DNA of 64,000 bases, from positions 5,151,244-5,215,243 of the forward strand of contig CM082597.2 of the NCBI GenBank assembly GCA_040954595.2, in the 5' to 3' direction. This DNA is from Balanoglossus misakiensis. Lineage: Eukaryota; Animalia; Hemichordata. The position numbers and the translations under genes were made by a program. Of this stretch, positions 1 through 42,972 are shown piece by piece; the first letter of the stretch is position 1; the number at the start of each line of letters is the position of its first letter. Under the pieces are notes generated by a model. It did no database searches. It worked only from the letters and a program-made list of their open reading frames with translations, and was not told the DNA's origin.

Positions 1-3000
1 TCCCGTGGCTGTGATGGGCCCTGCGAGGTCAGGGAAATCGTACATCACCAGTCAACTGCAGGAACCAAGACCGAGTGACTGTATATTCAGAATGTCTAAG
101 AATATGGATCCAGAAACAAAGGGTATGGTGTATCATATTATTTGCATTCTTATACATGCCCAATATTAGGCCGTCACTGCAAGTTTGACGTTTCAGGGGG
201 GTAGACAACCGATATTTTAGTTTACTTCAATTCTTCCCCTGGGGCAAGTTTCTAACATTTCCCAGAGAGTAGTCGCACGCAATATCACTTTTGATTAGAC
301 AGTGCATTTATCTCCATACAGGCAGAGTTTACGAAATTCAATTAACATTTTTTTCACGCTATGTCGAATTACACATAGAATTGCAATTGCTGTGTAGCTT
401 AAATGGTGAGTTTCGTTTCCATTGTCAGGCATATGGATCAACACTTCTCCTTTTAAGAAGGTACTTGATGATGGAAAGGAAGTCACAGTCGTTCTTCTTG
501 ACACGGAGGGATTCGGGTCACACGCTGCCTATGGAGATCCAGAGATGAACATGTTTTGCCTGACCGTCCTCTTGTCGTCTGTTCTCATATACAACAGTGT
601 CGGCGTGCCAAGAGCCGACGATTTGTATAAGTTCAAGTAAGGTCATTGATGTTGCACCATCAGTTGTGTATATTGCAGCTATTTGCGCATGTACTGTGAT
701 ATTCTGACTGGTACTGTCATTAAAGAACACACTCACGCACACTATTAAATTAAAAGTAAATACACACGGTGTTCGTTGGTATCGGAAGTTGCCGGAATAT
801 ACATTTTTGTATATGTGCTGTATTATTTTACAGTTGCGCAACACAAAAGATACATATAAGCTTAAAATACTCAATATCACTGTTTACGGTTTTTCCTTCA
901 GTTGGGTTCTTGAACTCGTGAATTCAATTCAAGTACGGGATGAAGACGACACGTCAGCGGCAGGAGAGTTCATTCACTTCTTTCCAAACTTCCTCTGGTT
1001 ACTACGCGATGTGCAACTGCAGCCGATAATTGACGGGCATGAAGTCAGCATTAAGGAATATGTTCTTACCAAGGTAGACTATTAACTGAGATTTATTTTC
1101 CATGCGAATTTTGAAGGATTTGGTGTCAGTGATATCAGTACCAAGCTGAGTATAAGATGTAAAAATTGCAGAAATCCGCCATCTTGATATTCTGTCGACC
1201 ACATGAGATTTTTACCACTCACCTAGGTAGCAGAAATCTATTTAAGGTATTCAGAATTTACTCACTCACTTAGGTAGCAAAAACCTATTTAAGTTAGTGA
1301 GCATTGGAAACATCACGACTTTCCACGTTCGCCTCCATTGTCAGGTGTTTGGTTTTGAGCCGGAGGGAAAGAAGCGAGCAGCCAAACAGAATAATCAGAT
1401 TCGCACCGCTATGCTAACCTACTTTCCTGATTTTGAAGTCTACGCCCTCCCACTACCGTCTGCTGACAGTGAGGTACTCGGTAACATGGACAGCGGCAGA
1501 TATCGAAAATCGTTGAGGCTGGATTTCGTCGAAGCTGTCGACGCTCTGTCAGCTACTGCCGCCAAAGTCATGAAAGCGAAAACAGCATGGCCCTTTGCTG
1601 GCTACGTCAACGGCATCGGTAAGTACAATACTTGAACCTTAACCAAGTTACTTTCCGACAATTGTTTTTTCCTTTCTAGTGTAATTCATTCACTATTGAA
1701 AACTAATGTTTGAGTGAGAGGTGTATATATTTTATAGTACAGCATTGTCCCAAGAAAATTTTCTCCACAACTTTATGAATCAATTTGCTACATGTTTGTG
1801 TATATAGCTATATCGTCCATGCATGTTACAGTAGTTTCTGATTACCTGCTAGTTATTTTAAATATTTTTTTTCAAGAATTTACCGAGTTATTGACAAACT
1901 ATGTCCAGTGCCTGACGAGTGGACCCGTCGATGTGCTGTCTGTTTGGGACGGCGTCTTGAAGAACGTCTTCAACAAGGCAATCCGAGAAGCATTCAGTCA
2001 CTACAAGACAGTCATGCTTGATTTTGTGCACAAGCGCTGTCCCTGTGACGAGGATGACGTCATCGAAGAACACGGAAAAGCTCATAAATCCGCCATCGAG
2101 ATATTCAAAGCAAACACACGAACTATCAAGGCTGCAAATCTGATTGAGAATTGCGTGCAGCAGTTAGTAGTACGTAATGTAATGCATTTAACAGACACAC
2201 TGCAGTGCAAAACGAATAAGCCCCAAAATATCATATGGGTGTTGTAATCTGTGTTGTATTCTTTTGTTTTCAAAGCATCATTTTTTTATTACTTTCAAAT
2301 TCTCCCTTAGGCTGTCTGTTCCTTACATGGGTTGTAGTTTGGGGGATTTGAACTTTGACCCTACCTAACCATGTCATGTAGCAAAGATGACAACTAGAAA
2401 AGCTTTAGTGTTAAAATGTGATTCTGCATTTGAAAGAAAATGTTACATTTTGCGCGTGATCTTATTATACACGAGGCTATCAAACAGACGGGCATTCCCC
2501 TACTAGTACACATCTTACACTCAAACAAGTTCAAAGGAATTCTTTATATGTATTGTTTCACACAGGATAAAATGGCCGTCTACGTGGACGAGGACAGCAG
2601 TTACAGTGGGGGCCTCTTGCCGCAACTCTTACAAGTAAACGTCAAACAATCAGATTCATTTTGCCGTTCACTTGCCAGAGGTCTTGTCGAGCGCAAACTG
2701 AATGTGTTGGATACAAAAGGGAACCACAATAAACAAACAACCTTCAGGGATATCGAGAAAGTGTTCCAGGAAATCGAGGAGATGTATGACAATCAAGCTA
2801 GGGGGCCTCGAAAATTGGAGATATATGAACAGGAAATAGCTAAAGTAGGTATAATCCCCTAAAGGTTAATAAACTGACGTAGTTCTATGTAACACGTCAG
2901 TTAAAGGAACCCTGTTGCAATAATTCAATATTAGTATTAAAACTATTATAGTTGAGGTATTCATGTTTCTCCGCTCACAACAGGCATTCCATGCATTGAG

Positions 3001-5029
3001 ATTCACATGGATTCCGGCTACATCATGTTCTACGTCATCAGAGAGTTAAATTTTACCTACGCCATCATACTTGAGCGGAGGTCGATCAACATATTATTCA
3101 AAGCTCTCCGGAATGTACAACGATATAAAGAACTCTAACGCAAAAACATGTAATCTGTGCAAGACTTCCTTCAGATACCTAACAGGTAGTGTTTGTATAA
3201 AAAATAAATTACCGTCTTCAACAGAGTCATCGCCAAAACTTGTTTTTTTTTTCCAGAAAATTATGGAGTTCTATAACGAACACATTGAATTTTTGAGCAA
3301 ACTGGACTACTTCCGATCTCCAGAAGAAGCAGAGAAGATTCGAGAAGGGGAAATGAAAACACGAGCAGCCGCTGATGAAGTGGTACAGACTGGCTTCTTT
3401 GTCTCATAATGATCTCTTTGTCTCATAATGATCACTTGGTTTCGTCTCTATTTCAAACACACATTTGTAATTACAACCAGTTTCATAGAACTGGTGCGAA
3501 AGCACTGATAATAACAATAAAATCTTTGTTGGCATATAGTTTAGCTAGCAAACGTTTTTGAACCACAATGTAGCCAAAAAAGTCAGCATATGGTTGAATT
3601 TTGGAACTTTAGCAAGTTTGTGTCCCGTGTGTAATTCATATCAGCAGGGTACGCTTACCCAACCCGGACACAACCTAGCAGTGGTTCAAGACGACCCAGT
3701 TAAAATTGTCATGTTTTTCTAGTTGTTTCTTGGACCTGGAATGATAATGATTATTGAACCCGATTTTTGTCATGTGTTTTGTTTTCAGGAGAAAAGAAAT
3801 TCGCTGAAGAAGAGGCGTCGACAAAACCAGATAGAGAAAACAGCAGTGGTGAGTTGTTTTGGTCTTGTCTTGTCTTGTCTTGTTTCTAAACTCTCTAAAT
3901 TGTTGTTATTGATGACACGATTCCTCGGTACACTCCTGTCCATTTATAGGAAGCATGTTTCTACATACAATTGACGCCTCCCTGTCCCTAATACGGGAAC
4001 ACCTGCAACCTGTATTTTATAACTTTCGGTTCGTGCCTTTCAGCTGCTTGCAGCTTTAGACAACGTCTGCCAAGAGAAAGAGCAGAGGACAACAGACACT
4101 TCTGCAATTCGTTCAGTGTTGAGACACAAAAGTCAAATGCTGAGCAAGACTCACACAGCGCTGGTGGACACGATTGAAGAAATCGACCGGAAGTTGGCCA
4201 GAAATAACACGGTGAAAACGGACGAACTGGAGAAGAAGACACACGAAGTTGAAAATCGCTGTGAGTATATACAGAAACCAACGATAGCAAGTGATGAAAC
4301 GCATGGTCTTTGAGACTATACGTGCTCTCCCTAAATATTGTCGTCTGCTTGTAAAATGTTTGAAACTCACCAAGGTAACGTTTGAATTCAGAATTACGTA
4401 TATTTGTCTTGCTAGTATACTAGTATACTTGCTAGTATTGTATTCTTACAGCTTTCCGTCTCACGACATAAGCCCCGTGCTTTAATCCGTTGATAAAATT
4501 CATATTAGGACCTCAATAGTTCAAGTGACTATTGCAATGAATTCTTTTTCGTTCTGTAATCAGTAAGGAGAGAAGAGAGTCAGCTTAAAAAAGACAAACA
4601 ATGGCACGAAGAAGGTGAGGTTGAAATTATTACATACAATGTACAACTATTGCCGTAAGATGTGAAGTGTTGTCGTTCACTACATGCGTGCAATATGGCT
4701 GACACCTTCATTACATGTGTAGTGACTGGCGTGCTCTTTTTGGCTGAGTGTCTTCCATTAATGTAGAAATTGCACTTGCTTAATTATACATTTCATCCCC
4801 CTAGAAATCAACATGGAGTCAGAGAAGTTGCGGAAAGAACGTAAGCATATACTATCTAATTACAATCATCTTTCTTGTAATGTCACGTTGCATGCAAAAA
4901 ATCCATATCTCTCTAACTGGCCGTGATAAGGTTGCAAATTTTCGATTGCTACGTCAGTATAGTTTCTTTGTCGTTTCAGATGAAGGTTTGAAGAAACAGA
5001 AACGTTCGTCGCATTGCCGCTTGATGTGA
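1..5029 (+). CDS. Guanylate-binding protein (GBP/atlastin-family large GTPase), 5'-partial, multi-exon, C-terminal CaaX
   Basis: Phase-consistent exons: <1-122, 429-636, 902-1073, 1345-1618, 1877-2169, 2566-2844, 3257-3382, 3789-3848, 4044-4260, 4564-4614, 4805-4840, 4980-5029. Motifs: G1 GPARSGKS, G2 ETKGIW, G3 LLDTEG, LLSSVLIYNS, G4 FLWLLRD. These are followed by a helical/coiled-coil region and the end KKQKRSSHCRLM*. Confidence 0.93.
1206..1293. repeat. Two-copy ~49 bp intronic tandem duplication
   Basis: gatttttaccactcacctaggtagcagaaatctatttaag is followed by gaatttactcactcacttaggtagcaaaaacctatttaag. Confidence 0.7.
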
Positions 5030-8417: not shown

Positions 8418-11400
8418 ATGGAAGCCGAGGTGATAGAAAAGATAGCCAAGTGTCTACAGGGTGTTGACCTCGATGAACTGGGGTTAAAACTTGGATTGGA
8501 TCAAAGTTCAGTGGAAGGACTCGTCGCCGACGAAACCATGGCGTCGCGGGATATGCAAATAGCGTTTGTGAAGTTGTGGCAATCCCAAGGGAAAGACACG
8601 TCCCCGGAGAATCTCGTGAAAATGTTGAAGGAGATGAATCGTGGTGTGTCAGCGATGAGAGTTGAACAGTTGAAAATAAAAAGCCATAGAGACGATGGTA
8701 AGATTAGCAGAGATGGAAAAGTTTACATTTTAACAATGTCATATACAAACCGGAACATGAGAGAAGAAATCCATAACATTGCCGTACAATTAGAATAACA
8801 ATGGAAAATATATCTTTGTTATACATCCCCCAAATATTATTATCAAAAGTGACTGTCTAAATGTTTCTCCGTGAACTAAAACAATGTCTGTAGATCTCTT
8901 TCAGCAATCATTTTTAGGCTACAGCACACATTACTATCTGCAATTCTCTGTATTGCTCCGTATAGCGGAGATGACACATTTTATAATGTAATTTATACCG
9001 TTGGAGTATCCTGATAATTGAATTATGTGTTACTGGATTACAGGTAATAAACAGCCGATCCTCAAATCAGTTTCCAAGCTACAGGAAAACATTGCTTCTC
9101 CTGTTACATCATGTACAGATGCAGAAGGTAAGTATATATGTGTGTTGGCTATCATTTTCCTCCGTCTTAAAACATTCTGTTCGTCTATTTATGTCATGCT
9201 AAAAACAAGCTATAATGTTAATAATAAATATAATGACATTTCCGTCATTTCTCTCAGCAGCTAAACAGTCCAGTGTGATACCACTGTGCTACCCCGACAA
9301 CTTTGAGTGGTGTAGCGAAGATGGCGTGTTAACGAGGAAAAGTGACGAGTCGGCCAAACTGACAGTGTGCGAAGATGCTCTGAACGTGCTAAAGCCTCTC
9401 AAAGGTCACGTGTGTGTCGTCACTGTGTTGAGAGACTCTAAATCCGGGGAATCGGGAAGAGAACGACACACGGGTGAATGTTTGTTCCGTCCTAAGAAAA
9501 ATGACGTCATCCACCAAAGAGGTTTGTATATCCGCCATATTGAACACCAGTCAAGGAAACAGCCATCATTAAGTAACAGAGCTGTTAAAACTAAGACCAT
9601 CCCTGTCAAATGCATCGAGTAATATGTTTCTATGCGGTAAATTAAGCATACTGTTCTCAGCGATTGTTATAAGGAACAGACATTTGAAACAGGCATGTGT
9701 AGTTTTCACAAACTGGTTATAACAAGTAAATAACACGTCAGGTGACCAACGTGGATCATCAGCTTTCTATAAACCATGAAATGACAATTTCATAAGTGTT
9801 TTTTTTTTAATATTTTGTTTTCTTTTTACATTATAATTATAAGGGCTATGGATGAGAAAAGAGACACTCAGTCGAGAATTGAAAGGTGGTGATAACGTCA
9901 CGGTTGTCTTCCTGGAAGCTTTTGACGATAGTAATACATCAACACAGAAAGTGGCCGATATCTTTACGTTATCATGTTTGTTGTCGTCTATGCTTATATA
10001 TAACATTGACCACAATCCAACGACTGACGATTTACAAAATTTAGGGTAAGTACTTTAATGATTGCAAAGGAAATTTGATCATATGATCAGAAAGAGGGGG
10101 GGGGGAGGAGGGAGGGAGGAGGTGGAGGAGAGAGAGAGGATACTGTAACAGATATTGTATGACTGTTAAAATCGTGTATTATTTCTCGCGGTTGTTGGCT
10201 GAACTGATTTTCTATTATTTTGTAATTCATTGTATATTGCAGCTGGATTTGCAAACTAAAGGATCTTATAAAGATGAAACAGAAGAATTTCTTTCGATTC
10301 TTTCCTCATTTCATGTGGGTGGTCAATGATTTTGCTGCAGCCCCTCCGGCGACAGTGAATGATAACAGCGACATCACCAGATCAGACTTTCTGCTGAACA
10401 ATGTAGGTGATATGCTCATAGATCAGCATTTATCTTCGATCACCAGAATGGGGAGAAAATCTTAATTAGCGTCTATGTTTCTCTTGAAGTGTTCCGTTTA
10501 CTCTCACCTTCCCTTGCAAAGTCAATTCAAAAAAAATGTGCTGAAACATCTTTAAGTTTTAAAATCCTACACCAATTCCAACATCTGCTACATGTATGTC
10601 GACGTTTGAAATTATTTGAACAAGCAAAACAATTGATTGATTAATAAGATGTCCTATTTCACGTGTATTGCAAATATTACATAATTTATGATTTCGATTC
10701 CGTTCAGTTTGATTAAAAAAACGCTGGAACATGTCTCACTTTTCCAATATTCTGACTATTTTTTTTTATAAAGGTTCTACAGTTTACACATGACAATGAA
10801 GAGAGTTCTAAGTTTAGAAATGATATAATAATGGCTCTGCTGACGTACTTCCCAACCTTTGGTGCCGATGATGTAAACACGGGTCCAGAAACCCACCAAA
10901 GCAGTCAACATCGCCACGACCACGAAGACTGTGGGATAGACAAATGCTTCACAGCATTCTGTGAACAGACATCGCTTCAGTTAAGAGCGAAGAAAGCGTG
11001 GCCCGATGTGGGAAACGTGGACGCAGAAAGTAAGTGTGTGGCGAGATAGAATTATACTGTGATAAAATGGCACACAATACATCCGTATTTATTATATTTT
11101 GCCAGGAAGAAAAAATAAATTGTTCATCGGAATCGCCGCTTCTACTTTGGCTGATTTGGAATTTTTTTTTTAGATCTCGGCAAATTCTACTTCCGCGTTA
11201 CAAAATTCTTAGTACTACCGCTGGTGGCCAGAATATGTTGTGCAAACAACAACTATAAATGTAATGGCCTATGTTATTGTTGGGAAATATAGTATTGAAT
11301 TCAGTTACAAGTACATGTATCAGTGTTTTTGTCCGAGATATTTCTGGTAAAAAGGAAAACAATTATCTCGCCCTGTCTGCATTTGTGCAAATATGCCAGA

Positions 11401-14400
11401 GAACCGCCTAAACCAAAAACAAAATTTTCGCTCGCCGCTCCTGGAACTAGGTCCAAAAAATCCGATGAACAAGATTTTTTTCTCTCTGGCCGTATGGCTA
11501 TATTTTACCTTGTATTGTTACTTTTAGCATTGGTTGGACTCATTAAGGGCTACACATCATGTCTAAACAAAGGACGCTCTCCGATAGACGTGAAAGCAGT
11601 TTTCGATGGCGTGGCAATATCCTTGGTAAGGTCTGCGGCCAACGACGCTTTCCTCCACTACTCAAAACAAATGAAGACATTTGTCAACGACACGACTCCG
11701 TGTGACGAAGCACTGATTATCAAAGACCACGGCAAGTGTTTCAGTTCAGCTCTACAGGAATTCCAAGAAAGGACACAGTACGTTACGGATTCCGACCTCC
11801 TCGCCGAACACAGAAAGAAATTGGCGGTAAGTTCTTCCGCGCGAGTTTTATAGTGCACGCACGAGGTACTATACTAAACAGAAAAAAAAAATCCATAACG
11901 CTATTCAACAATGTTGCAACAATGTATACGAACAATGGAAGCAACACCCAAGGAAAGTCTGCAGCTACAAAACGCAGACTGAACGAACGAGCAGCACAAA
12001 TCTTATCCCGCAATGCCGCCAATGTAACGGAAATTCCGTCGGACTGAGGCCCAAAATTTGTCAAGCCTTAGTGAATGACGAACCTTGGACCAAACAGGCA
12101 ACTCAACGGTAGCGTAAACGTAACACGATCGAGCCTTGACGGCGTAGACCGGTCCCGTCCTAGTCATGGGTCGATATACCTTGCGCACGGCAGAACGTGC
12201 GCTGAGAGATGTGCTGAAAAGACCTGAGCGTTGCGCTCACACAAATACCAAGAAAAACCTCGGAATTACGATCCGTAGACAACTAAAACTCTCAGAGGTT
12301 ACAGGAAAAGTGTTCCCACAAACGTGGAGAAAGGTTTTAACGAAAATATAAGAAAGACAGAGGTAAAGTACGAATTCAGATCACCGCAACCGAGAGCACG
12401 ATGCTCACAGTTCAACCGCCATGTCTCGTCTGCCGTTGATGCCGAGGGGAGTCACTATATATGCAACCAGCCCACGTGATACAAGCTCCGCCCCCAATAG
12501 TGGAAAATAGTTTCTCCTGCTATAGGGTAGCCCAGTCTGAGAATCAGGAAAAAGTCGCATTTCTTGAGATCCGAGTCTTGTACGTGTACGGCATTTGACC
12601 TACCATTTGACCTAGCATTACCATAACAATGTATCGAAAGTTATTTTGTAGCGTGTTGCTCGACTTTTGATTTTATGATCCGGTCATAATGAATATACAG
12701 AAATAATTATTTTGCTTGGATTTAATTCATCTTCCGATCTGAAATATGTACATCGTAGGCTTATAAACATTGTTATATTGTAATAATCAAAACACATCAG
12801 CATTATTCCGATCAAAATTATAAAATTAAAAATCGGCTCAAAGCTTCATGCTGGTAAACAATATATTTTAACGGAAATTATGTCGGACTGACTTGCAATC
12901 TGCAGACTCCCACAAATTATACATAATACTATCATAGACACGAAACTGGTCATACTAAGAACAATAAGCCTTAAATAGGGGTCTATGGGGGGGCTTGTGA
13001 GAAATGAACTTGACTCGCTTTAATTCTGCACTTCATCGCTCACTTCTCCATCAGGTAATAACATAAGAGGTGGCAAATCCATAAAGTCGTCAGAATTGGA
13101 CGCCTCCACAGACCGACCTAGAATTTTATAGTGCACGCGCGAGGTATACTAAACAGAAAAAAAATCCATAACGCTATTCAACAATGTAGCAACAATGTAT
13201 AAGAACAATGGAAGCGACACCCAAGGAAAGTCTGCAGCTACAAAACGCAGACAGAACGACTCCGCAGCACAAATCTTATCCCGCAATGCCACCAATAAAA
13301 CGGAAATTCCGTCGGACTGAGGCCCCAAATTTGTCAAGTCTTAGTGAATGACGAGCCTTGGACCTAACAGGCAACTCAGCGGTCGCGTAAACGTAACACG
13401 ATCGAGCCTTGACGGCGTAGACCGGTCCCTTCCAAGTCATGGGTCGATATACCTTGCGCACGGCAGAACGTGCGCTGAGAGATGTGCTGAAAAGACCTGA
13501 GCGTTGCGCTCACACGAATACCAAGAAAAACCTCGGAATTACGATCCGTAGACAACGAAAACTCTCAGAGGTTATAGACAAAGTGTTCCCACAAACGTGG
13601 AGAAAGGTTAGAACGAAAATATAAGAAAGATAGAGGTAAAGTACGAAGTCAGATCCCTACAACCGAGAGCATGATGCTCACAGTTCAACCGCCATGTCTC
13701 GTCTGCCGTTGATGTCGAGGGGAGTCACTATATATGCAACCAGCCCACGTGATACAAGCTCCGCCCCCAATAGTGGAAAATAGTTTCTCCTGCTATAGGG
13801 TAGCCCAGTCTGAGAATCAGGAAAAAGTCGTATTTCTTGAGATCCGAGTCTTGTACGTGTACGGCATTTGACCTAGCATTAACATAACAATGTATTGAAA
13901 GTTATTTTGTATCGTGTTGCTCGACTTTTGATTTTATATGACAGTCATAATGAATATACATAAATAATTATTTTGCTTGGATTTAATTCATCTTCCGATC
14001 TGAAATATGTACATTGTAGGCTTATAAACATTGTTATATTGTAATAATCAAAACACATCAGCATTATTCCGATCAAAATTATAAAATTAAAAATCGGCTC
14101 AAAGCTTCATGCTGGTAAACAATATATTTTAACGGAAATTATGTCGGACTGACTTGCAATCTGCAGACTCCCACAAATTATACATGATACTATCATAGAC
14201 ACGAAACAGGTCATACTAAGAACAATAAGCCTTAAATAGGGGCCTATGGGGGGCTTGTGAGAAATGAACTTGACTCAATTTAATTCTGCACTTCATCGCT
14301 CACTTCCCCATCAGATAATAACATTAGAGGTGGCAAAATTCATAAAGTCATCAGGTTGATATACATTGGACGCCTCCACAGACCGACCTGGAGTTTTATA

Positions 14401-17400
14401 GTGCACGCGCGAAGTACTATACTAAACAGAAAAAAAATCCATAACGCTATTCAACAATGTAGCAACAATGTATACGAACAATGGAAGCGACACCAAAGGA
14501 AAGTCTGCAGCTACAAAACGCAGACAGAACGACTCAAATCTTGTCTCGCAATCCCACCAATTTAACAGAAATTCCGTCGGACTGATGCCCAAATTTGTCA
14601 AGCCTTACTGAATGACGATCTATGGACCTAACAGGCAATTCAAACGGCCGCGTAAACGTAACACGATCGAGCCTTGACGGCGTAGACCGGTCCCTTCCAA
14701 GTCATGGGTCGATATACCTTGCGCACGGCAGAACGTGCGCGGAGAGATGTGCTGAAAAGACCTGAGCGTTGCGCTCACACGAATACCAAGAAAAACCTCG
14801 GAATTACGATCCGTAGACAACGAAAACTCTCAGAGGTTATAGACAAAGTGTTCCCACAAACGTGGAGAAAGGTTAGAACGAAAATATAAGAAAGATAGAG
14901 GTAAAGTACGAAGTCAGATCCCTACAACCGAGAGCATGATGCTCACAGTTCAACCGCCATGTCTCGTCTGCCGTTGATGTCGAGGGGAGTCACTATATAT
15001 GCAACCAGCCCACGTGATACAAGCTCCGCCCCCAATAGTGGAAAATAGTTTCTCCTGCTATAGGGTAGCCCAGTCTGAGAATCAGGAAAAAGTCGTATTT
15101 CTTGAGATCCGAGTCTTGTACGTGTACGGCATTTGACCTAGCATTAACATAACAATGTATTGAAAGTTATTTTGTATCGTGTTGCTCGACTTTTGATTTT
15201 ATATGACAGTCATAATGAATATACATAAATAATTATTTTGCTTGGATTTAATTCATCTTCCGATCTGAAATATGTACATTGTAGGCTTATAAACATTGTT
15301 ATATTGTAATAATCAAAACACATCAGCATTATTCCGATCAAAATTATAAATTTAAAAATCGGCTCAAAGCTTCATGCTGGTAAACAATATATTTTAACGG
15401 AAATTATGTCGGACTGACTTGCAATCTGCAGACTCCCACAAATTATACATGATACTATCATAGACACGAAACAGGTCATACTAAGAACAATAAGCCTTAA
15501 ATAGGGGCCTATGTGGGGCTTGTGAGAAATGAACTTGACTCAATTTAATTCTGCACTTCATCGCTCACTTCCCCATCAGATAATAACATTAGAGGTGGCA
15601 AAATTCATAAAGTCATCAGGTTGATAAACATTGGACGCCTCCACAGACCGACCTGGAGTTTTATAGTGCACGCGCGAAGTACTATACTAAACAGAAAAAA
15701 AATCCATAACGCTATTCAACAATGTAGCAACAATGTATACGAACAATGGAAGCGACACCAAAGGAAAGTCTGCAGCTACAAAACGCAGACAGAACGACTC
15801 AAATCTTGTCTCGCAATCCCACCAATTTAACAGAAATTCCGTCGGACTGATGCCCAAATTTGTCAAGCCTTACTGAATGACGATCTATGGACCTAACAGG
15901 CAATTCAAACGGCCGCGTAAACGTAACACGATCGAGCCTTGACGGCGTAGACCGGTCCCTTCCAAGTCATGGGTCGATATACCCTGCGCACGGCAGAACG
16001 TGCGCTGAGAGATGTGCTGAAAAGACCGACCGACCTGAGCGTTGCGCTCACACAAATACCAAGAAAAACCTCGGAATTACGATCCGTAGACAACTAAAAC
16101 TCTCAGAGGTTACAGACAAAGTGTTCCCACAGGCGTGGGGAAGGGTTAGAACGAAAATATAAGAAAGATAGAGGTTCAGATCCCTACAACCGAGAGCAAG
16201 ATGCTCACAGTTCAACCGCCATGTCTCGTCTGCCGTTGATGCCGAAGGGAGTCACTATATATGCAACCAGCCCACGTGATACAAGCTCCGCCCCCAATAG
16301 TGGGAAATAGTTTCTCCTGCTATAGGGTAGCCCAGTCTGAGAATCAGGAAAAAGTCGTATTTCTTGAGATGCGAGTCGTATACGTGTACGGCATTTGACC
16401 TAGCATTACCATAACAATGTATTGAAAGTTATTTTGTAGCGTGTTGCTTGACTTTTGATTTTATAAGACAGTCATAATGAATATACAGAAATAATTATTT
16501 TGCTTGGATTTAATTCCATAGTTATAATTGTTGACTTTTGAAAGAGAAATTTCTCCCCCAAAACCTGAATAAGCTCCCTCTCCGTTTTGTAGGAGGATAT
16601 GGCAGTGTACAATGACGTCAACAACTGTGGGGGCGGTCTGTTGAGCCACTGTCTTCAGTCAAATTCACAGCAGTCAGAAGCGTTCTGTTTCGACCTTGCA
16701 CTTGGTCTGGAAGACCAGAAACTGAAACCATTGATTCGCACCTCGGCGACAAACAAGGAGCTAACGTTTGAGGATTTCGAGTCTGTTGTGAAGGACGTGG
16801 AGACTGCGTACTTCCAGGCAGCAAGGGGTCCGTACAAGTATTTGATTTACCGGACGGTGCTTGTTGAAGTAAGTGTAGGTAAATGAAGGCAGCACACAGA
16901 TATAGGCAGACACAGCTTCATTCATCTCAGTGTAAATGAAAAAAAAAATGTTGTGAAATGCTATTTGCATTGATTTGAACTAGCTAATGTGACATCAACA
17001 TTGATATTCTTTTTATTTTGATCACATAGTCATTGTTCTGTTAATGCAAGTGGTGGTGAAATGTGCTCCATTGGACATAAATACAAAAGTCTGTGAATAA
17101 TATAAAGGGATTTGTTTCAACACCCATACCACCATATGTATTACTAGTATGTTATCAACGCCACGAAAAATGCTCTGACCCCTATTCGCACTTCCTATGC
17201 CATTTTCAGCGATTCACCGAGTTTTACTACGAAGGCGAGGGATATCTCCAAAACCTCAAAAACTATAAACCAACCAGTGAAATTGACAGCCTGGAAAAGA
17301 GTGCTTTCGAGTACGGCGCTGCTGCGGAGGAAAAGGTGGGGTTGTCTGTCTCACTACTGGAGGCGATGTCTTTGATTTTTAAAGTCAGTCGGTTATTTAA

Positions 17401-18704
17401 TGCAATAATACAAGGAGACAGTATATTCAATACTGTTTTAAATTATTAATTGGATTTTTCGGTTCATCAACGGGTGATGAATTATATGATTAATAAATTT
17501 ACATGGTGACTGTGTCCCTCCACACCCAAATCATCACCTCCATCTCGTCTTACAGGTGATGAAGATAACTTCTGAACTTATGAAGTATCAAATGCAGACT
17601 GAAGCCCGTGCACAAGTAATATATGTTCCTTATTTGATCTTTTCAAGCCTACATACTACAGCAAATTGCGTTGTGGACAATTGCAGTTTCATTTGTGCAA
17701 GTTTGCACACTTTTACCACATGCATGCACAGCAACATAAGGGTTATTGGCAATACAACAGGGCGAATTTTCATATGCGGTTGCAATTGTTGCTTCGATAT
17801 GATTATCTTGTTGTACAATGTGAAGTCCTCTATTCTCAAATACCATAACCGTTGAAAATATGGCTGCTCCGATCAATAATTGCCTTTCGAATAAACCCTC
17901 CGAATTGTCATTCTATTTTCTGACCGTATAACAATTTATTAAACGTCACCTATCACCAGATATGCGCGGAAATAGATGGAATAGATCGTGAACGTGACGT
18001 CACATCCACTGATTTCAAGGAAAGGCTGAAGGCGTTGCATCTGCAATGTGACAATCTGCGGGGAACACACGTGGATTTGGTGGAGGAGCTAGAATTGTTT
18101 GAGGAAGACTTGGATCGTGAGCATCTTATCATGGTGACAAAGTTGGAGATTAGGAAACGAGACTTGCTGGAAGAAAAAGGCGAGTGTTCAAAATCATTTG
18201 TGTTTCTGTGATATGTTTTCAATGTGCATTGATGTTGATAAAATGCATTTCATAACAGCCTGTCGATAGTTTTTCGCTATTTAGAAGTATGTAAAATTCT
18301 CATAAGGTATTGCTACATACACTCACTGATTTTGAAATAATGTCTCCATAGATAACCCTGTGTAAATAATTTGCATAATTGCAGACGAGCTGGAGAAGGC
18401 ACTGGCAGGCAACCCAACATGCAATGGTAAGAAACAAAATTATAAGAGCGACACCCATTTGCTTTTGGATCGACACAATCTACTAAAGATAGTGATTTCT
18501 CTTTTGTTGCATTCGCAAAATATATTTTGGTTTTGCTAAAATCATTTCACACAGATCTCAGTTTCTGCAGGTTAATGCATATCGATAATTTACAGACATA
18601 AATTATGCTAATATAACCAGTCACTATCACGTGATTTTTTCTCTTTGTTTTCAGACGAAGATGGGGTTCCTATGTCACCGGAGACGCATTGTTTAATACT
18701 GTGA
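8418..18704 (+). CDS. Death domain-fused GBP-like pseudo-GTPase with C-terminal CaaX
   Basis: Exons: 8418-8697 (death-domain-like: LDELGLKLGLDQSSVEGL...FVKLWQSQGKDTSPENLVKMLKEMNR), 9044-9127, 9258/9261-9521, 9844-10045, 10243-10402, 10774-11029, 11528-11826, 16593-16868, 17210-17335, 17556-17615, 17960-18179 (GC donor), 18385-18426, 18655-18704. The exon layout and sequence parallel the upstream GBP (LLSSMLIYN, FFPHFMWVVND, LLTYFP, AKKAWP, PCDE, MAVY, QAARGP). Ends SPETHCLIL*. Confidence 0.9.
11846..16517. repeat. Intronic tandem array of a ~1.27 kb unit, ~3.7 copies
   Basis: The unit marker ttttatagtgcacgc occurs at 11846, 13124, 14394 and 15659 (spacings 1278, 1270, 1265). Copies are highly similar, and the short ORF MGRYTLRTAER... 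recurs in three of them. Confidence 0.97.
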
Positions 18705-20847
18705 TTGGTAATAGGAGCCTGGTCCTTCAGCACGCTTTGTAGGAACTAAGGTCAACAAAGAGGACAACGACATTTTCCAATATGTACATACATTCATCAC
18801 ATTTTATGTAACTACTTGTTGTACAAAGCCCCCACCCACTAAACGTTAACGGAACTCACTACTCCGGAAAGGATGTATTCTTTGATACAGTAACATGTTA
18901 ATGTGGTTGAAAGTGCCATAGCATCGTTGGCTTGGCTACTAAATTTGTCGTCAGTATCTTACTGAAATAGAATGGTAAATGTGCTTGATTCTCAAAAGTA
19001 ATACATTTACCGTTAGTGTGTTGATATTGGTTTCGAAGAGTCAACGAGACGCTCTTATGTATTTTGAGTATCCACATGACTGTAAATTCGGTGGACTGAT
19101 CTCTGAGCTCGCCTTCTGGGAGACAAATTTAGAAGATTGTAACTTAAATAACGTCATACATGTATATTAAAGCGTGACAGTTCAAGCCTTGCCTTGTCGT
19201 CAACTTGTGTAGGCCTATGCCACGATTTTGGTCAAGCAGGAATCCCTTACCCTATGTATGCGTTACTCGCACGACGAGCTGTGCTTGTTTGCACATAACT
19301 GGAATCAGCAGAAGAATAACTACCCCGCATTTCTTTGCAGAAATACCCTGTCCCAGAACAGCTACAGGGAGAGAGTCAGTATTTTGAAACAGTATAGGAT
19401 GTATAACCTCACAGTTGAACCTACCGGTCTATATAGGCGGAGTAGGTATCATGTAACGTTAGCGAGGCTGACGGCTAGCTCGTGTAAGATTGGCTCATTT
19501 GTAATTTATCATGTGAATGAACGGTAAATCATCAACTTTGCAACGGTTGAAACGCGATGGCAGTGGTAAGAAACGCTCATAAATTACTGATTTACTGACT
19601 GCAGCGTGACTCGATGACTTGGATGTTAACATGTTTTCAGAATTGCAGGGTGACGCGGATCTTTAATAAACCAAAATGTCTTCGTGGAAAGTAAGATTTC
19701 TCTCATACCGACTTTCAAGGGAACAATTCCAGCGTGTTAATGCGTCTTTGATTGATGTCTGCTGTACGCGTTCGCGTGACAAGAGCGTACCGCGTATACC
19801 AACATCCAATCAAATTACACAACGCATCCGCCTCGTTGGCTTGTTCTAAGAATTTCTCGACGGCTTTCCGAAGTAACAGTATCGAGTTCTAACCGGGTCA
19901 GTTCCCCGTGCTTATCCCGTCTTTTAGTTTCGCAGCAAACACTTTAGGTCTCCATAATCAGCTGTGGTCTCTAGGGAACACTTTTATATAAAATATATAA
20001 CTTCCCGTTTTTTATCGAGGGTTTTCGCGTACCCGGCGAACGTTCCCAAGGCTTTGTCCTCTGAGAAAAATGCATATAATACATAATTGTAAATTATGTT
20101 TAATTGGTTGGTATCCTATATGAGATTTTTTTTGGTGGAAGACTTTCACGTTTAACTTTCCTTAGCATGGTTCAACCCCCCCCCCCCAAAAAAAAAAAAA
20201 AAAAAAAAAAAATTATGAAAAGGCCACTATTTGTAACGTCTCAGGCTGTCATTTGTCATAATTGGTGTTTAGTGTATCAGCTACATTCCCGTCTTCTTTT
20301 ACAAAAATGTACCTATGGCATCCCGACACACCAAGTTTTCTGCTTGTCATGTGTATGTGTATCGGTCAATGGTATTCTTGACAAACGCATTTAAGTCCGG
20401 ACTTTAATTTAAATGTCAAATGTTCACACATGGGCTATGATGAGAAGACTAACACTGCATATTTAACCTTGCTCAATGGAGCTAAACAAAAAACATGGTC
20501 CTAACACAAAAAATACACTGAAAATGTCAATAATTAGAGAGTGAACCTTTAAAGACGCCTCTTGGAATTTTAGAGCAAACACACACAACCCCATAAACGC
20601 CCGGTCTGTCTGCGAGCCTTCAGTCCCCGAACAAAAAAGGTAATTATTTACATATAAACACGTATGGACCAATCCGGATCGGTCGTGAATACGTTTGACG
20701 CGTACGCGGAAATACATAATTTTTTTTGCAGTGTCTGTAAGCGTCCGTTTAAGCCAGACGTCAGCTGAGAAACATCTGATCGTTTTTCATGGGTGCACAG
20801 CATGTCCGGAATGGTTTGACCAGTGCTGACCAGGCCGGAGTTTCGAA

Positions 20848-23800
20848 ATGGCGGTTGACAGAGGCATTGCGATATGGAGGGTGTTGATGTTGTGCGGTAA
20901 GTACCTTGTTGGTGTACGGGTACAGTGAGTGAGCGGTCATAAACGTTTTGAACCATGCACACAGCAGAAAGGATCATGGTGGCGTCCTGTGGATTTTAAA
21001 AAGCCCAGGCCTCCATTCTTAATCAGTCTTTTAGTCATCTGCTGGTTCATGTTTAAGGTTGGAAGTCTTTCTGCGTTTAGTGTTATGTTATATTGGTATT
21101 TAAATATCTCTGTGAGGTGTATCCCAGGCAAAAACATGCGGTCTGACCGCAACGCGGAAGTGACCACAAATAGACCACAAAATGGCTGCTTCACTTCAGC
21201 GAAGAGTTTCCACTTCGCGATTGTAGCTGTACAGTGCCAAATAACAATTCAAGCCGTAAAAGAGGTTGGGAGTTGCATAACCTGGATTGTCAACTCTCGT
21301 CAGGTGTCACCATCGTGTTTTAGCTGTAGGCCTTATGATGAATGTGCTGTATAGTGTCATGTTGGTTGTTGAAGCTCGGAATGAACCTTTGGACAGTTCA
21401 AACGTGAATCGTCGAAGTTGCACGGGCTATAATTAATAAAACACTAGTGTTTTCAACGTCTTGGCGTATGAGTTGTGTTTTCGTATGCCTTCAAACGCAC
21501 AGGGCCGGCCTAGCGACGCACACAGTCACAGTAGCCGCGGGTCGATCAAGTGACCTTGGAACTGTTTGCACTATTTGCTCGGCTATTCAGGCTTTGAAAC
21601 AGAAGGGGGTAGTTCTGACTTCAGACTTTAAACTGCATACTTTACTTTGTACGTGGGTGCCAGCGAAGAAAACCATTCACAATTACCACCACCACTTTCC
21701 TTCCACCAATGTTGTAAAACAATATATTTTAAACCGTGGCATGACTACACTTGTAAACGTTTTCAAGACACTGTATCTGTCGGGGCATAAAAGAAAAGTG
21801 GCTGGTGTAATAGGGTCACGCCTCATCGCAAACTTGGGGGGGGGGGGGGTTGTACTCCTATAGAAAGGTGGACGGGTATGTGCAGCCCAGAGAGGCCTCT
21901 TTCCACTGAAAAAAACTTAACATGGGTCGTATATTAATCCGAAATAACATTACTGAACATGGGTCGATAATATAGCTGTAGTATCTGAGTGCTCTTGGAA
22001 AACCGGTACAAGCAACGCTGAGAACAACGATTCTGGTCATTGAAGATATCCCAACTATTGACCAGAAATCGCTTCAAGTACGATGGGCCAATTCTTGGGG
22101 TATCTGTTGACTGAAGTTTCGAACTCTGGCCCCACCCCCACCCCCGTTCGGAAAACTGAACTTTGACGATCACGTCCCAACGAAATAAGAAACCAAGCTG
22201 CGAGGAGTTATTTCCGTTTTCCTGCTCATGGAATAAACACAATTTATTATTAGTATAGTACCCTCGAATGTTTGGTGATAAACTTTAAAGAGAATACATT
22301 TAAGGGAGTCTTCAGTATTTACAGGGGGTGGGCCGGGGTGGTTAAGCGTACACCTGGACTCTAAAATATGACCCTCCCCCATATCCTCCCTTCTAAAATG
22401 TGACCCTCCCCCTTGTCCGACATTGTAAACCCTGACCCCCATCCCACCACTTTAGGACATTTTGTGCCATGATATACAGTACACTGATGTATATTAAGTA
22501 TTTCACCACCATGATTTGTCTTTAATCTAATGTATCTATTGTTTTATATGGCAAAGTTGGACCTCTACTCAGGCAACTTGAGGTGAAAGTGTTTAACATG
22601 CCAGAAGCTGTTACTTTTGTTCCATGAAGATGATGATGATGGTGGTGGTGGTGGTGGTTGTGGTGGTGGCGGCGGCGTAATTTACTAGGGAGCTTTAACA
22701 ATGAAGAATTTCACTTATAGGAAATTAAAACAGCGTTGAAATTGCATCCTCCTCAGATTAAAACTGCGGCAGCTTCAAAAAAACTGGGCATGTGTTAACT
22801 GAAACCATGGCTTCACTTGATGGAGTTGTGAAGTGGCGCTTCTTGCGTGACTTTCGACAGGTCATAAAGCGATCGACGACACGTGACTTGTGCTACCTTA
22901 CGCGTGATGTTTAACTGGTGATCGTTTTGATGTGAACATCCGCCGCCTTTAATTTAGATCCCATATCCGGGGGACAATTGTTCTACGGGAACCCAGTTCA
23001 TTTCAGAATGCCACAACACTTTGGTGTAAGCTCCACTCATGTTCAGTAGTGTGTTACTAGTAAAATAAGTTTTATGACCCAATCTCGTCCCTCTACCAAT
23101 CAGCTCTTGTGTTGGATTTTGACTGCAGTAATCCCATTGGTAGCATGAGTAATTGTGATAACAGAGGCATTGGTTCATAATATTTAGTTTGCGATGTAGG
23201 ATGTAGCTTTTTGCTGCTTTTGTATTTAATTCACACACAGTCCCTGTGTGTGCAGATTCTTTCAGGTGGTGGTGGTGGTGTGTGGGGGGGGGGGGGAGGA
23301 GAGATTAATAAGCCGGTACATATTCGTAATGTAGAAAACGACAAAAGGAGAAGTTGAGTGGCGGTTATTCCTGAGTGTTCAAACATATTGGATTTGAACA
23401 AGATCGGATTACTAGAGTCAGGCATCAGGCGATAACAGTAGGACCCCTGTTTACCCTGGACTGTAGTATTGTAGGAGGAAATGTTTACACCTACAGTTTG
23501 TGGTCGTGCGATCTTGAACGGTTAGGGTCATTTGAAAGCACGACACGGTTTGGTTGTCACTCAGCTGGTAGCCAGAGTTTGACAGATGAGGGTGGGTCAA
23601 CCCCCCCCCCCCCCGAATATGGCCTATGGCGTATTGCAGAACCAAAATGGCGCTGAAACTGAGCAACAGGACTATGTGCACTGAACCATGGGTAAACGAA
23701 CCGGAGTTGTTAAGCAACTTAGCTATATTACTTGGGGTGAAAGGTTATTGACATGAGACTATTACTCGGTGGCCGATTGCAGCGGTTTACATCTACCTGT

Positions 23801-25569
23801 CTATGGGGGTGGTTATTTATGTAGGGTCATCACACTCATCTTGGAAGAGAGCACGTTAATTTCTGGGGATAAATGTCAAACTTTACACCATGTATACCCT
23901 GGGCACGTAGCATATCTTATATCTCCCTTAAGCAGGGTACTCTCAGATGCAGTTCATTGTTATCATATTTCATAGCCTTACACCGTATGTTGAACTTAGA
24001 GGAAACAACTATTGCAATATTGTCATTTTCTTGCGAAAAGGGGGCTTTAATAAATTATATAAAGAAAACACAAACTGATAGAGTAGGATGGGAATACCAA
24101 TATTTTCGATTTAGTGTAGACTCATGATCTTATGAATTTGTGAAATTGTTGCTTAGAGCAGTCGGCTCGAACCAGGAACGCCGTGAAAAAATGGTTACAC
24201 CGGAAATAACATGATCATCAAGTTCCTTCTGTGCCAGGCAATTGTGTTATGGGGATGAAAAATAACCAAGAGTTCGGTTACAGATCACTGTATTCCCTTA
24301 TACTTGGTGATGTCTGTTTTAACCAACTTCACCACGACCTGAACACTTATACTTATTGCAAATGTAATACTGAATCACATTGATTGCACAAGACTGGTAG
24401 GCACAGGGCTGGATACTTTCAAGTCAGAAACGGTTGTCGAGGATTGAGGCCGTGTTCATTGTAATGCTGTCTTAAGTGGTTTATGTGTTGAAATTTCATG
24501 AATACGGTATACGCGATACATGCCTTCGGGCACGTTTTTCTCACGACTAGAAAGAGGAAGTAAATCCGCTCGCAAATTAAACACCTCCCTTTGTTAGGAA
24601 CAATGTCGCAGCCTTTAAGCGTAGGCGTAGGAGTCAGGGCACCCCTCGGGGGAAATTGAATCGGCCTTTCAGAATTTACCTTTGAACCGTGTGATGCTGC
24701 CCGCAGTAACATAACGATTGGTGTTAGTACGCTATAACCTTACAGTATACTATCCCAGTCTCATACAGTCACATGACAGCAGATCATCTGGCATCGCTGG
24801 CCTAATAATATTTGCTAGTTCACTTTGAAAGGTCAGTGACATCTGTAAGTGGCCATCTACAGGTGTTGCGAAACGTTCGGTTATTTTTTTCTTCCATATG
24901 CAGTTGTTCCGTATGCAAATAATATAGCTAAGCTTTGTATGAAACTAGAATTGGCGCAAAATTTAACAAAAATTGTAACTTTTGTGCCGTTTTACACGAT
25001 GAACCATTTGCTGTTTGCCCTGTGTTGCGAGAATGTCCCGCCATATTGCCTAGCCAAGCGAAATCTCGCAAGCTCTCGTGGAGTTCGGAAAACCGTCTAT
25101 TTAACAATGTCTGTATCATTCCAGGCATCAGTGTGGCCGCGAGTGCAGGCAGCATACAGACTGTAACGGCCACAGGGCAAGAGGGAAAAGATGCGATTCT
25201 GGAATGGACTTTGGAAAAACCGGACGGCGACTTCCACGACCAAACGGTAAAGTGGGAACGAAAGAGGGAGGGGGATTGGATTGTTGTAGCAGCATCATTT
25301 TCTGACTCTGTCAGTAATCTTCACCCGCGATATAATATCAACAGTGACTACTCCCTGGTGATTCACAACGTGACGATATCAGACGAAGACCTCTACAAGT
25401 GCTTGGTCTCCTACAAGCGCAAAAATCCACAAGAGTCTGACGGGACATATATAACTCTTGTTCAGCGCGTAAATCTAACTGTCATAAGTAAGTTAACCAA
25501 GGCTTTTATTGTAAACACGTGTGTAATCTGTTACTGATATGGGTAGAGCAAATCTGTCCCTGTCCAAAA

Positions 25570-25622
<53 letters not shown>

Positions 25623-28600
25623 CAGGCAGGCAGACAGACAGATAAATAGTTATCATAATTATTAGCGGCTATTTTGAATGTCAAATATCGTATGAAATGT
25701 TTGCATGCCCACCCACGTTAGAAATGTTAAGAGAGCATGATCTAAAGTTGACTTGAGCAGTATATGGATACAAGCTTTAGACTTTGAGGTTTGAAGTGTA
25801 TACTACTTTGAATGTAGGTGTCAAGGTTCTGCCTGTTACTTGTCAAGTTCCTGCTAATCTTGTCTTTCTAAAACACAAACGTTGGGAAGGTTAACCCTGT
25901 ACTATTTTTGAAGCTGTTCTCATTCGGTTCTGAAAACGTCATGTGTCAGAGTCTATTGATGACTATTCGCTTCAGTGAGTTCATTCAACTTCATGTTTCT
26001 CTTGCCAGGTCCAATCAACGATCTCCTTCTCTATTCGACCAATGATGACTTACTTGTGTGCAACGCCACCAACGGCAAGCCTCCCGCGTCCATTCATTGG
26101 ATCGTCAACGGTGTGGTCATCACCAAGAGTACTAGAGAGTTCAGTGTTTACAGCTACCTTGAAACTACATCCTACGGAAGAAGTGATTCCATCAGTGAGC
26201 TGACCTTTTTGAAGTTTTCCAATGAACATATCCCCATTGTGACATGTGTCGCTCAACAGGAAAACCTTGCAGAGAGATATGTTTGGATGCCTTCAACAGA
26301 TCCTCTCCAACCAGGACAAGCAGGTATTCATGGCTGTATAATTTTTCAAGACCTTTGACAAATCTATGTTTTGTTTGTGGTTTTGCTACCCTGTGAATGA
26401 CAATTGGCCAGTCTCATTTGCAGGAAACATTAGACTCGTTCTTTGCCCAACCATGGAGCTAGAAGCATCCATGGCCCAACTCTGTTGCCCCAAAAGGGAC
26501 AAGTATCCACCGCCATTTTGTCCAGTCAAATTACACAATTGTGCATGTGTAATACACTGGAACATGCGCAAAGACATGACTAGTCCATGACACATGCGCA
26601 ATGACGTGGGCTATGGCTTGAAAAATGGCGGCGGATACTTGCCCCGCTGGGTTCCCTCAGGAGGGTTCCCTTTACGAAACAACCGGTGTAAGATCGCAGC
26701 GCCCCGATTGAGCAAGGAGCGAGCCTATTGAAACAGTATAACATGACCTACTCATTGTGGTACCTTCCACCTTGTAGGTTCCTCCGAGACAGCGCCACCA
26801 AACACAACAGTAAATGGTCCAACAGCTGCTCACGACTCCACAACTCCACGCCAAGGACCCATCAGTGTTCATGTCGGTGCAATGAACTGGATGCTGGTGG
26901 TTGTGGTTATGTTTATCGTCATGTGCATCCTGGTAGTATCATTCACCATCATTGTGTGTTGGATGCGACATAAGCCAAACAGTGTACGTATGTTGAAATA
27001 ATTTGACAGTATCTGAAAATCTTGAATGAATTGTATTGCTTCTAAAACGACCAATATGTTTTCAGAGTCAACCCACGAACTATCATCTGGATAGTTAATT
27101 CGTTATACGTTGAAGATGGCGTTTTCACATGGTTTTGCTAGTTTAGTCACCGTTGCCAGGAAACACGACGCCTCTGGGCATCTACTTAGCATTCATAACA
27201 CTTCTTTTTCACAGACGGTTATTATCCAAAGCGATATTGAAAACCAATCATGTCTGAATTCAAATGGACTAGGAGAATCATCAGGTAGCGACGCTCAGCA
27301 AAACAATAACAACACCACCAACGGGGAACCGAGCTTCTCCCTCTTAACCGAGTTCACAGGAAACGGTTTCACAAATACACTGGTGAATAACAGTCTGAAC
27401 AACAGCTTTTCCCGTGATGTGCCCGACCTAGTGGAACCCCATGCTGGCATTCAAGCGACATCCCGCAGTAGAGATTCCGGTTATGACGAGGCGGATGGTC
27501 TGACAAAATTGCTTGGTTCTCCGCCCGATGACACAGTGTCTACCGTGTCTTCGTCGTCCGCCAGTACTGCGTCCAGCGAGGCGTCCATGAGTGACCGCCC
27601 TCTGTCGCCGGGCTATGTGTGCGACAGAGACGCCTTTGAGATCCCTCGTGATGATATCATCTTTGACAAGAGAGAGAAACTTGGTGCAGGATTTTTCGGA
27701 GAGGTTTTTAAAGGACTGGTTAAACTTCCTGGCAAAGTAGAGACAAGCATCGTTGCGATCAAAACTCTAAAAGGTACAGTTATTTTCAGACAGACAGACA
27801 GACTTTTAAACTTGCTAATAGTTTTCATATGTTGTCACTTGCCTGCGTTTTACATGTATTGGCTACGTTTTAACGAGTAATATGGCGCCTACACCACTGA
27901 TGTAAAACTTAGGCGTGTTTACATGTATCGTTTTTTCGTGTCACCTTTTCCACGAGAGAACCAAACTGAAACCACACCACGTGACATCAGTGCGAATTGA
28001 GTGTATTTACCATTTCCATCCAGAATGCAGCAGCAGTGATCACTACGACGCCTTGCTCCGTGAACTTCAGATCATGAAGACCCTGAACATTCATCCTAAT
28101 GTGGTGACGTTACTGGGATGCTGCACACGCCCTAGAGATGGTAAGAAGACGATCATGTTCATGTGTCGCCATGTCAGCCTTTTCAGCCACCAACACACGT
28201 ATCAGTCAAACCCCTCTTAGTGGCCACCTCTATATAGTGGCCACTTTGTTACAGTCCCTGTGTAATTCACATGTGTGTTAGTTAACCTCTATCTAAAGGT
28301 CTCCTCTCTCTAAAGGCCAGTATAGGAAAGTCCCTTGACTGGCCACTATAGAGAAGTTTGATTGTATTGCTATATGATTAGACTAACCATTCAAAGGACT
28401 TATATGTAATATTATTACCTTATCAAACACATTCAACAGTCATACCATTGCACAATCCTTGGTTGACCAGTTAAACCCATTGCATTTTGTTACAAACAGT
28501 ACAGCGATATTTACACGTTATGAAGAATACATACATGTATGGATTTTGTTCCAGGATTGATACACCACTAAGATACACCTCCTGGATTGTATTTACACAG

Positions 28601-42746: not shown

Positions 42747-42797
42747 AGTCATCAACATCAACGTCATCATCGTCGTCGTCATCATCATGATCGTCAC

Positions 42798-42860
<63 letters not shown>

Positions 42861-42869
42861 GATCGTCAC

Positions 42870-42934
<65 letters not shown>

Positions 42935-42972
42935 ACTTCATCATCTTCATCAACTTCATCATCATCATCATT
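42747..42972. repeat. (CAT)n trinucleotide microsatellite
   Basis: Long cat/atc run, twice interrupted by tgatcgtcacc. It produces the spurious poly-D, poly-M and poly-I ORFs. Confidence 0.97.

Follow-up and report, generated by a model that had tools for sequence, protein, structure and literature searches.

What use can an animal make of a guanylate-binding protein (GBP) whose nucleotide site is destroyed? The question is raised by a gene at 8418-18704 on the forward strand of a 64,000-nucleotide stretch of the genome of the acorn worm Balanoglossus misakiensis (contig CM082597.2, positions 5,151,244 to 5,215,243), which in its whole length is called the window here. Its product begins with a predicted death domain (DD), continues with the G domain and helical stalk of a GBP, and ends in a CaaX box (CLIL); the gene lies in tandem with an active GBP. 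To judge from alignment with that neighbor, three of its four nucleotide-binding motifs, G1 to G3, are clearly destroyed. Comparison with an orthologue in Ptychodera flava indicates that this dead DD-GBP gene is maintained and is not a decaying pseudogene; what the sequences indicate as maintained are the DD, the stalk and the CaaX box, and not the nucleotide site.

The 13 exons join into 2319 nt, encoding 772 aa and a stop with no internal stop codon, as the first-pass annotation of this locus had described. All 12 acceptors are AG and 11 of the 12 donors are GT; intron 11 requires a GC donor at 18180, on which that annotation, right about the intact frame, was silent. The exons, the repeat in intron 7 and the neighboring gene are as follows.

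Exon 1, 8418-8697, + strand: start ATG and predicted DD (about residues 1-85); 63/85 identical to the P. flava orthologue.
Exon 2, 9044-9127, + strand: variable linker; AG/GT sites, phase 1-1; 9/26 identical to the orthologue.
Exon 3, 9258-9521, + strand: pseudo-G domain begins; dead P-loop at 9431-9454; G2 Thr lost (9512-9521); 38/88 identical to the orthologue.
Exon 4, 9844-10045, + strand: G domain with G3 = EAFD (9915-9926); Pfam GBP E = 1.3e-6.
Exon 5, 10243-10402, + strand: G domain with G4 ND (10325-10330); Pfam GBP E = 0.041.
Exon 6, 10774-11029, + strand: G domain ends; 32/80 identical to the orthologue.
Exon 7, 11528-11826, + strand: helical middle domain begins; Pfam GBP_C E = 0.0099; the query that retrieved the orthologue.
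Exon 8, 16593-16868, + strand: distal middle domain, conserved as much as the DD; 68/92 identical to the orthologue.
Exon 9, 17210-17335, + strand: helical region; 27/42 identical to the orthologue.
Exon 10, 17556-17615, + strand: long C-terminal helix; junctions collinear with the orthologue.
Exon 11, 17960-18179, + strand: long C-terminal helix, then the GC donor; 43/73 identical to the orthologue.
Exon 12, 18385-18426, + strand: exon of the gene model.
Exon 13, 18655-18704, + strand: acidic tail, CaaX CLIL (18690-18701) and stop.
Tandem repeat in intron 7 (11827-16592), 11843-16516, no strand assigned: a non-coding unit of 1.27-1.28 kb, present in about 3.7 copies, the later ones 90-93% identical to the first.
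Upstream tandem paralogue, active GBP, 1-5029 with the 5' end outside the window, + strand: 12 exons without a stop; intact G1-G4, basic tail, CaaX CRLM.

Aligned with the active neighbor, the dead gene has RDSKSGES for GPARSGKS in G1 (9431-9454), HQRG for ETKG in G2 (9512-9521 and 9844-9845), EAFD for DTEG in G3 (9915-9926) and ND for RD in G4 (10325-10330), so the motif changes first proposed are borne out. The register of G3 is ambiguous by one or two residues between two alignments, and its Asp and Gly are lost in both. The G boxes were defined as in PMC12489281; the catalytic Arg is Arg48 (PMC11746146) and the P-loop Lys is Lys51 in GBP1 (PMC2998424). Where an active GTPase has G1 GxxxxGKS with the catalytic Arg, a Thr in G2 and DxxG in G3, the dead gene and its orthologue have RDSKSGES and RYSSSCEE, HQRG and KPRG, and EAFD and EAID, respectively. 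G1 of the dead gene retains the second Gly and the Ser, its catalytic Arg being replaced by Lys, and in G4 the Arg has become Asn with the Asp kept, likewise in the orthologue. Because G4 keeps its Asp, we count three rather than four motifs as clearly destroyed; the initial statement that all four had been lost holds for G1-G3 and was otherwise overstated.

The orthologue was retrieved by a HMMER search with exon 7 against 1.84 billion representatives, which gave eight matches at E <= 0.001. The best of them (E = 1.4e-27, 60%) is P. flava XP_070548584.1 (P0037), a protein of 774 aa that is identical to the dead protein at 417 of 765 positions (54.5%) and carries the same N-terminal domain. 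In RefSeq it is an uncharacterized 'guanylate-binding protein 2-like', a label silent on both the DD and the dead motifs. It resembles the dead gene in having the DD, the dead G1-G3, G4 ND, the stalk and a CxIL terminus (CSIL), and differs in a P-loop decayed further and in a linker insert of 13 residues found in isoform X1, by which the two RefSeq isoforms, XP_070548584.1 and XP_070548583.1, are distinguished. Isoform models of this kind are as a rule built on RNA-seq evidence. Between the two species each of the 12 exon junctions is collinear, and 10 of them are gap-free within 8 residues. Intron 2 of the dead gene (9128-9257) contains a short stretch resembling the start of the X1 insert, followed by a stop and without an AG acceptor just before it; this is possibly a decayed optional micro-exon.

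In a midpoint-rooted tree of 18 rows and 544 of 774 columns, the dead gene and its orthologue form one clade (support 100/100) on a long stem (0.93) among the hemichordate GBPs; this tree gives no fixed relation of the dead clade to that of the active neighbor. The changes of the first Gly of G1 to Arg and of the P-loop Lys to Glu are common to both species, and thus the loss of catalysis appears to predate their split. A search with P0037, in which 7996 candidates were scored, returned only P0037 and the active paralogue P0049 and missed known relatives such as P0001. A word search with exon 3 found no match among 30 candidates although the orthologue exists, which shows the limits of that search, and of 75 pattern matches in metagenome contigs none was confirmed. 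A further P. flava protein, XP_070548502.1 (P0045, 356 aa), is identical at 344 of 356 residues to the C-terminal half of the orthologue and has the stalk and CaaX box without a DD or G domain; it is either a partial copy of recent origin or an incompletely annotated gene.

Conservation between the two species is unequal across exons (chi-square p = 2.5e-6) and across parts of the protein: 63/85 (74%) in the DD, 126/278 in the G domain and 206/332 in the helical part. In the columns common to the dead pair (the dead protein and its orthologue) and the active pair (the active neighbor and its P. flava counterpart), the G domain is identical at 102/228 positions (45%) in the dead pair versus 180/228 (79%) in the active pair (p = 5e-14), and the stalk at 156/236 (66%) versus 151/236 (64%; p = 0.70). 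The lowest windows cover the P-loop and switch I, with identities of 0.33-0.34 in the dead pair versus 0.82-0.89 in the active pair; over residues 540-633 the dead pair reaches 0.71-0.83. Terminal branches are 0.38 and 0.43 for the dead pair versus 0.18 and 0.20 for the active pair. As a stand-in for dN/dS, neutral evolution was simulated by substitution only, without indels and with a kappa of 2, in 1000 runs per level. None of the 1000 runs was free of stops at 54.5% identity (mean 18 stops), none at 77%, and nine at 90%.

These results bear on the suggestion that the gene is a decaying pseudogene, or that the model is mis-joined with exon 1 taken from another transcript, to which we give only a very small chance. 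In its favor are the strongly diverged G domain, the GC donor in one intron and the 4.7-kb tandem expansion in intron 7. That expansion is recent and local, and its longest stop-free frame is 93 aa; TRF is blind to it, the period exceeding 500, and Rfam gave no matches across the window. However, RefSeq independently models the P. flava gene, in two isoforms, with this DD joined to this GBP body; every one of the 12 junctions is collinear, no neutral run out of 1000 kept the frame, and conservation is uneven among exons. The decay that the first-pass annotation had set against its own reading was thus not found, the orthologue bearing the same lesions.

The dead protein belongs to the GBP family, with a G domain, a helical middle domain and a long C-terminal helix; its full-length fold was modeled on the orthologue, and the GBP fold is predicted to be kept. 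Pfam GBP matched the orthologue at E = 6.5e-13, and exon 3 alone gave no Pfam GBP match; Death (under its cut-off), GBP and GBP_C, the three families that had been expected, all scored in searches by exon or with the orthologue. The orthologue model, built from a 22-row alignment (pLDDT 68, pTM 0.62), resembles GBP1/2 from residue 128 to residue 711 (Foldseek E = 1e-20; VIA Z = 25.6 to GBP2, root-mean-square deviation (rmsd) 5.9, 515 aligned). Its pLDDT falls below 50 at 184-197, 201-207, 240-246, 310-324 and 370-378, the nucleotide loops. A match of the helical region to AvrB_AvrC (E = 0.004) fell under its cut-off and was dismissed as noise from helices. A prediction of a complex between the active G domain of P. 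flava and the dead one scored 0.00 in two runs made without alignments and is not counted as evidence in either direction.

A pseudo-G domain that evolves quickly might be a bait, which mimics active GBPs, catches microbial effectors and reports them through the DD. Consistent with this, the domain keeps its fold at roughly double the divergence rate of the active pair, and the fold matches include a structure of GBP1 in complex with a bacterial E3 ligase, which marks GBPs as targets of effectors. A bait should, however, stay like the protein it mimics, yet the dead protein is only 30% identical to the active neighbor, and relaxed selection accounts for the divergence without positive selection. 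We therefore consider a bait improbable.

Exon 1 is predicted to encode a death-fold helical bundle, on which three methods agree with middling scores. Against Pfam Death (PF00531), exon 1 gave E = 6.8e-4 (20.2 bits) and the N-terminus of the orthologue E = 2.1e-3 (18.6 bits), both below the cut-off of 22.6. Only three PDB sequences matched at E <= 1, all of them the Fas DD (E = 0.68-0.96). A single-sequence AF2 prediction for exon 1 reached a pLDDT of 76, with two of five models confident and five of six helices formed. In Foldseek the top seven rows for this model were all death domains (best prob 0.97, TM 0.53-0.60, none at E 0.001), as were the top nine in VIA (Z = 6.4-7.9; the best was the MALT1 DD, rmsd 2.8, 80 aligned), and these fold searches ranked death domains above CARDs and PYDs. 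The earlier wording, a 'death-domain-like' exon, is therefore apt as to the type of fold, to which both Pfam and the fold searches point, at scores that are below the cut-off in the one and middling in the other.

The best fold matches include the death domains of ankyrin and p84, not those of immune adaptors alone, and this leaves some small room for a membrane-anchored DD tether outside immunity (for example in developmental cell death or organelle organization), with the GBP body as a rigid spacer. The tandem arrangement with an intact GBP and the expansion of the family in P. flava, the usual pattern of immune genes, speak against such a tether, and we regard it as hardly probable.

The claim that the DD had been added to this gene was unsupported. 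Its gain is not readable from the window, because the window starts inside the G1 exon of the neighbor, and the P. flava orthologue of that active neighbor also has a death-like N-terminus, which we treat as a lead only. The active P. flava paralogue P0049 and the Saccoglossus protein P0046 start directly at the G domain; XP_070548642.1 (P0048), the orthologue of the active neighbor, carries about 100 further residues at its N-terminus. Residues 1-90 of P0048 matched Death-containing clusters of the ESM Atlas in the top two feature matches (0.87 and 0.86, with Death in 17% and 27% of members), and six of the ten structure rows contained Death (TM 0.59-0.63); a Pfam search of P0048 gave no Death match. 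Both genes of the pair may thus carry a death fold, by descent or separate gain.

The active neighbor has the motifs GPARSGKS, ETKG, DTEG and RD. Its closest named proteins are from P. flava: one exon matches a P. flava protein at 87%, and the protein is identical to XP_070548642.1 at 364 of 536 positions. The dead and active neighbors share 182 of 600 residues (30%; E = 4e-84), and introns 3-12 of the dead gene have the phases of the first 10 introns of the active one (10/10). Their tails differ: the last 30 residues of the dead protein are acidic, with one K/R and seven D/E (the tail of its orthologue, with three K/R, is acidic too), whereas the tail of the active neighbor has eight K/R and a basic patch directly before the CaaX box, at the position of the R584-586 motif of GBP1 (PMC11746146).

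What, then, might be the function of a dead DD-GBP? By analogy with known proteins, and with somewhat less than even confidence, we propose a nucleotide-independent brake or decoy on GBP-linked death-fold signaling. In human GBP1, nucleotide binding drives dimerization, middle-domain crossover and lipid exposure (PMC11746146, PMC9005921), and the K51A mutant is monomeric and diffuse and forms neither homo- nor heterodimers (PMC2998424); a protein with Glu for this Lys is accordingly not expected to form coats, or to enter them, along the usual pathway. Zebrafish Gbp4 mutated from KS to AA enters Asc specks through its CARD and blocks caspase-1 as a dominant negative (PMC4932187). In Arabidopsis, the pseudo-GTPase GBPL1, with mutated G2 and G3, sequesters the active GBPL3 and has been proposed as a negative allosteric regulator (PMC12489281, PMC10473214, PMC12422185). 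It is on account of K51A GBP1, the acidic tail and the Gbp4 and GBPL1 precedents that we put a brake first.

Under such a brake, the dead protein, not binding GTP, would undergo no G-domain dimerization, opening or coat polymerization; its DD would still bind the DD adaptor used by active hemichordate GBPs, and its conserved stalk may contact those GBPs. Partners would be sequestered in unproductive complexes, probably on membranes of the host, and the threshold of signaling would rise. A CaaX box ending in Leu is by rule geranylgeranylated, and CLIL is predicted to be modified in this way.

Several points weigh against a brake. K51A GBP1 is also without heterodimers (PMC2998424), and the loops of the G-G interface are the least conserved part of the dead GBP; direct inhibition through the G domain is thus unlikely, and only the DD or the stalk would be left as the route of a brake. 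In the same study as Gbp4, a GTPase-dead GBP5 from mouse had no dominant-negative effect (PMC4932187). The DD of the dead protein showed no sequence likeness to the N-terminus of P0048: HH-align and BLASTP gave none, and 67 of 100 shuffles scored as high. The low pLDDT of the nucleotide loops may come from disagreement with the alignment of active GBPs and not from disorder, and an immune role is suggested by knowledge of the family only.

The first-pass annotation had instead proposed a positive adaptor: a dead GBP carried into or beside the coats of the active paralogue, where its DD nucleates signaling. Its premise, that a real gene encodes a GBP catalytically dead by its motifs, with a death fold in front and a CaaX box behind, is supported, and the gene is conserved; the proposed scaffold, which would present a DD on membranes and connect the coating of pathogens with death signaling, is weakly supported in view of the K51A monomer, the acidic tail and the dominant-negative Gbp4, and we think it rather unlikely. 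Conservation of the DD, stalk and CaaX box together would suit an adaptor, as would the GBP-CARD and GBP-DED fusions that tie GBPs to death-fold signaling (PMC6400534), the redirection of human GBP2 and GBP5 by GBP1 through heterodimerization (PMC2998424), and the organization of coats by the middle-domain crossover (PMC11746146), the distal middle domain being the best-kept part of the stalk. But K51A GBP1 forms no heterodimers (PMC2998424), Gbp4 requires its GTPase activity for caspase-1 activation (PMC4932187), the tail of the dead GBP is acidic, and a separate adaptor is less needed if, as the lead in P0048 suggests, the active paralogue has a death-like domain.

Extending the brake to both genes gives a wider picture, which we offer as doubtful: acorn worms may have a paired GBP switch, in which an active, basic-tailed, farnesylated GBP with its own death-like domain coats microbes and the dead, geranylgeranylated DD-GBP sets the firing threshold, much as cFLIP pairs with caspase-8. 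If true, the GBPL1/GBPL3 circuit of plants would have its first natural counterpart in animals, one wired directly into death-domain signaling.

Elsewhere in the window, a receptor tyrosine kinase gene lies at approximately 20840-30640; it encodes Ig domains of the V-set and C2-set types, a transmembrane segment and a kinase whose HRD motif looks intact. At 50839-51778 a different surface protein is represented by Ig exons, V-set and C-type. Long exon-like frames at 39247-39708, 46876-47349 and 47817-48239 show Ig-like beta-strand patterns and no Pfam match at E 0.05. At 42712-43100, the poly-His, poly-Ile and poly-Ser frames are spurious products of a long (CAT)n-type microsatellite.

In animals, GTP binding is regarded as necessary for GBPs to dimerize, to expose their lipid and to coat pathogens. 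A long-dead GBP in which the DD, stalk and CaaX box appear to be under selection would mean that animals use the GBP body in a way that does not depend on nucleotide, and it offers a direct test of restraint on GBP-linked death signaling in a deuterostome lineage whose GBP function is unstudied. It also illustrates how names such as 'GBP2-like' in databases conceal pseudoenzymes. No DD-fused, naturally dead, CaaX-bearing GBP was found in the open-access literature (subscription papers and supplements, such as Shenoy 2012 and Li 2009, may list such forms), and the text of PMC2575513 has no occurrence of GBP, guanylate or GTPase. The combination was thus not found described, as first supposed, but the novelty claimed for the architecture was overstated, since GBP-CARD, GBP-DED and the pseudo-GTPase GBPL1 are already published. 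TRADD-N fusions to GBP GTPases have likewise been reported (PMC8195603), and pseudo-GTPases are found in other families, namely the septins (PMC10731463). In short, each part of the dead DD-GBP has a precedent, and the combination is seen in two species so far.

Among the known systems, human GBP1, GBP2 and GBP5 share with the dead GBP the fold, the layout of G domain, middle domain and long helix, and the CaaX box, but they are active GTPases without a death fold and are 18-20% identical to it in structural alignments. Arabidopsis GBPL1 is likewise a lineage-restricted GBP-family protein with mutated G boxes and active paralogues in the same genome (PMC12489281, PMC10473214, PMC12422185). It differs in belonging to a nuclear-condensate system of plants, whose GBPs are described there as being without a CaaX box and with no death domain named; its mutations are in G2 and G3, whereas the dead GBP has additionally lost the P-loop Lys, and the two are probably of independent origin. 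The GBP-DED of Branchiostoma floridae (Shenoy 2012, via PMC6400534) is also an invertebrate deuterostome GBP with a death-fold domain, in this case a DED and not a DD, and the review's account of it is silent on dead G motifs. Zebrafish Gbp3 and Gbp4 (PMC4932187, PMC6400534) are GBPs fused to a death fold as well, but there a C-terminal CARD goes with a required active GTPase, whereas the dead GBP has its DD at the N-terminus, a G domain that is dead by nature, and a CaaX box; it would thus be a natural version of the dominant-negative Gbp4-CARD mutant.

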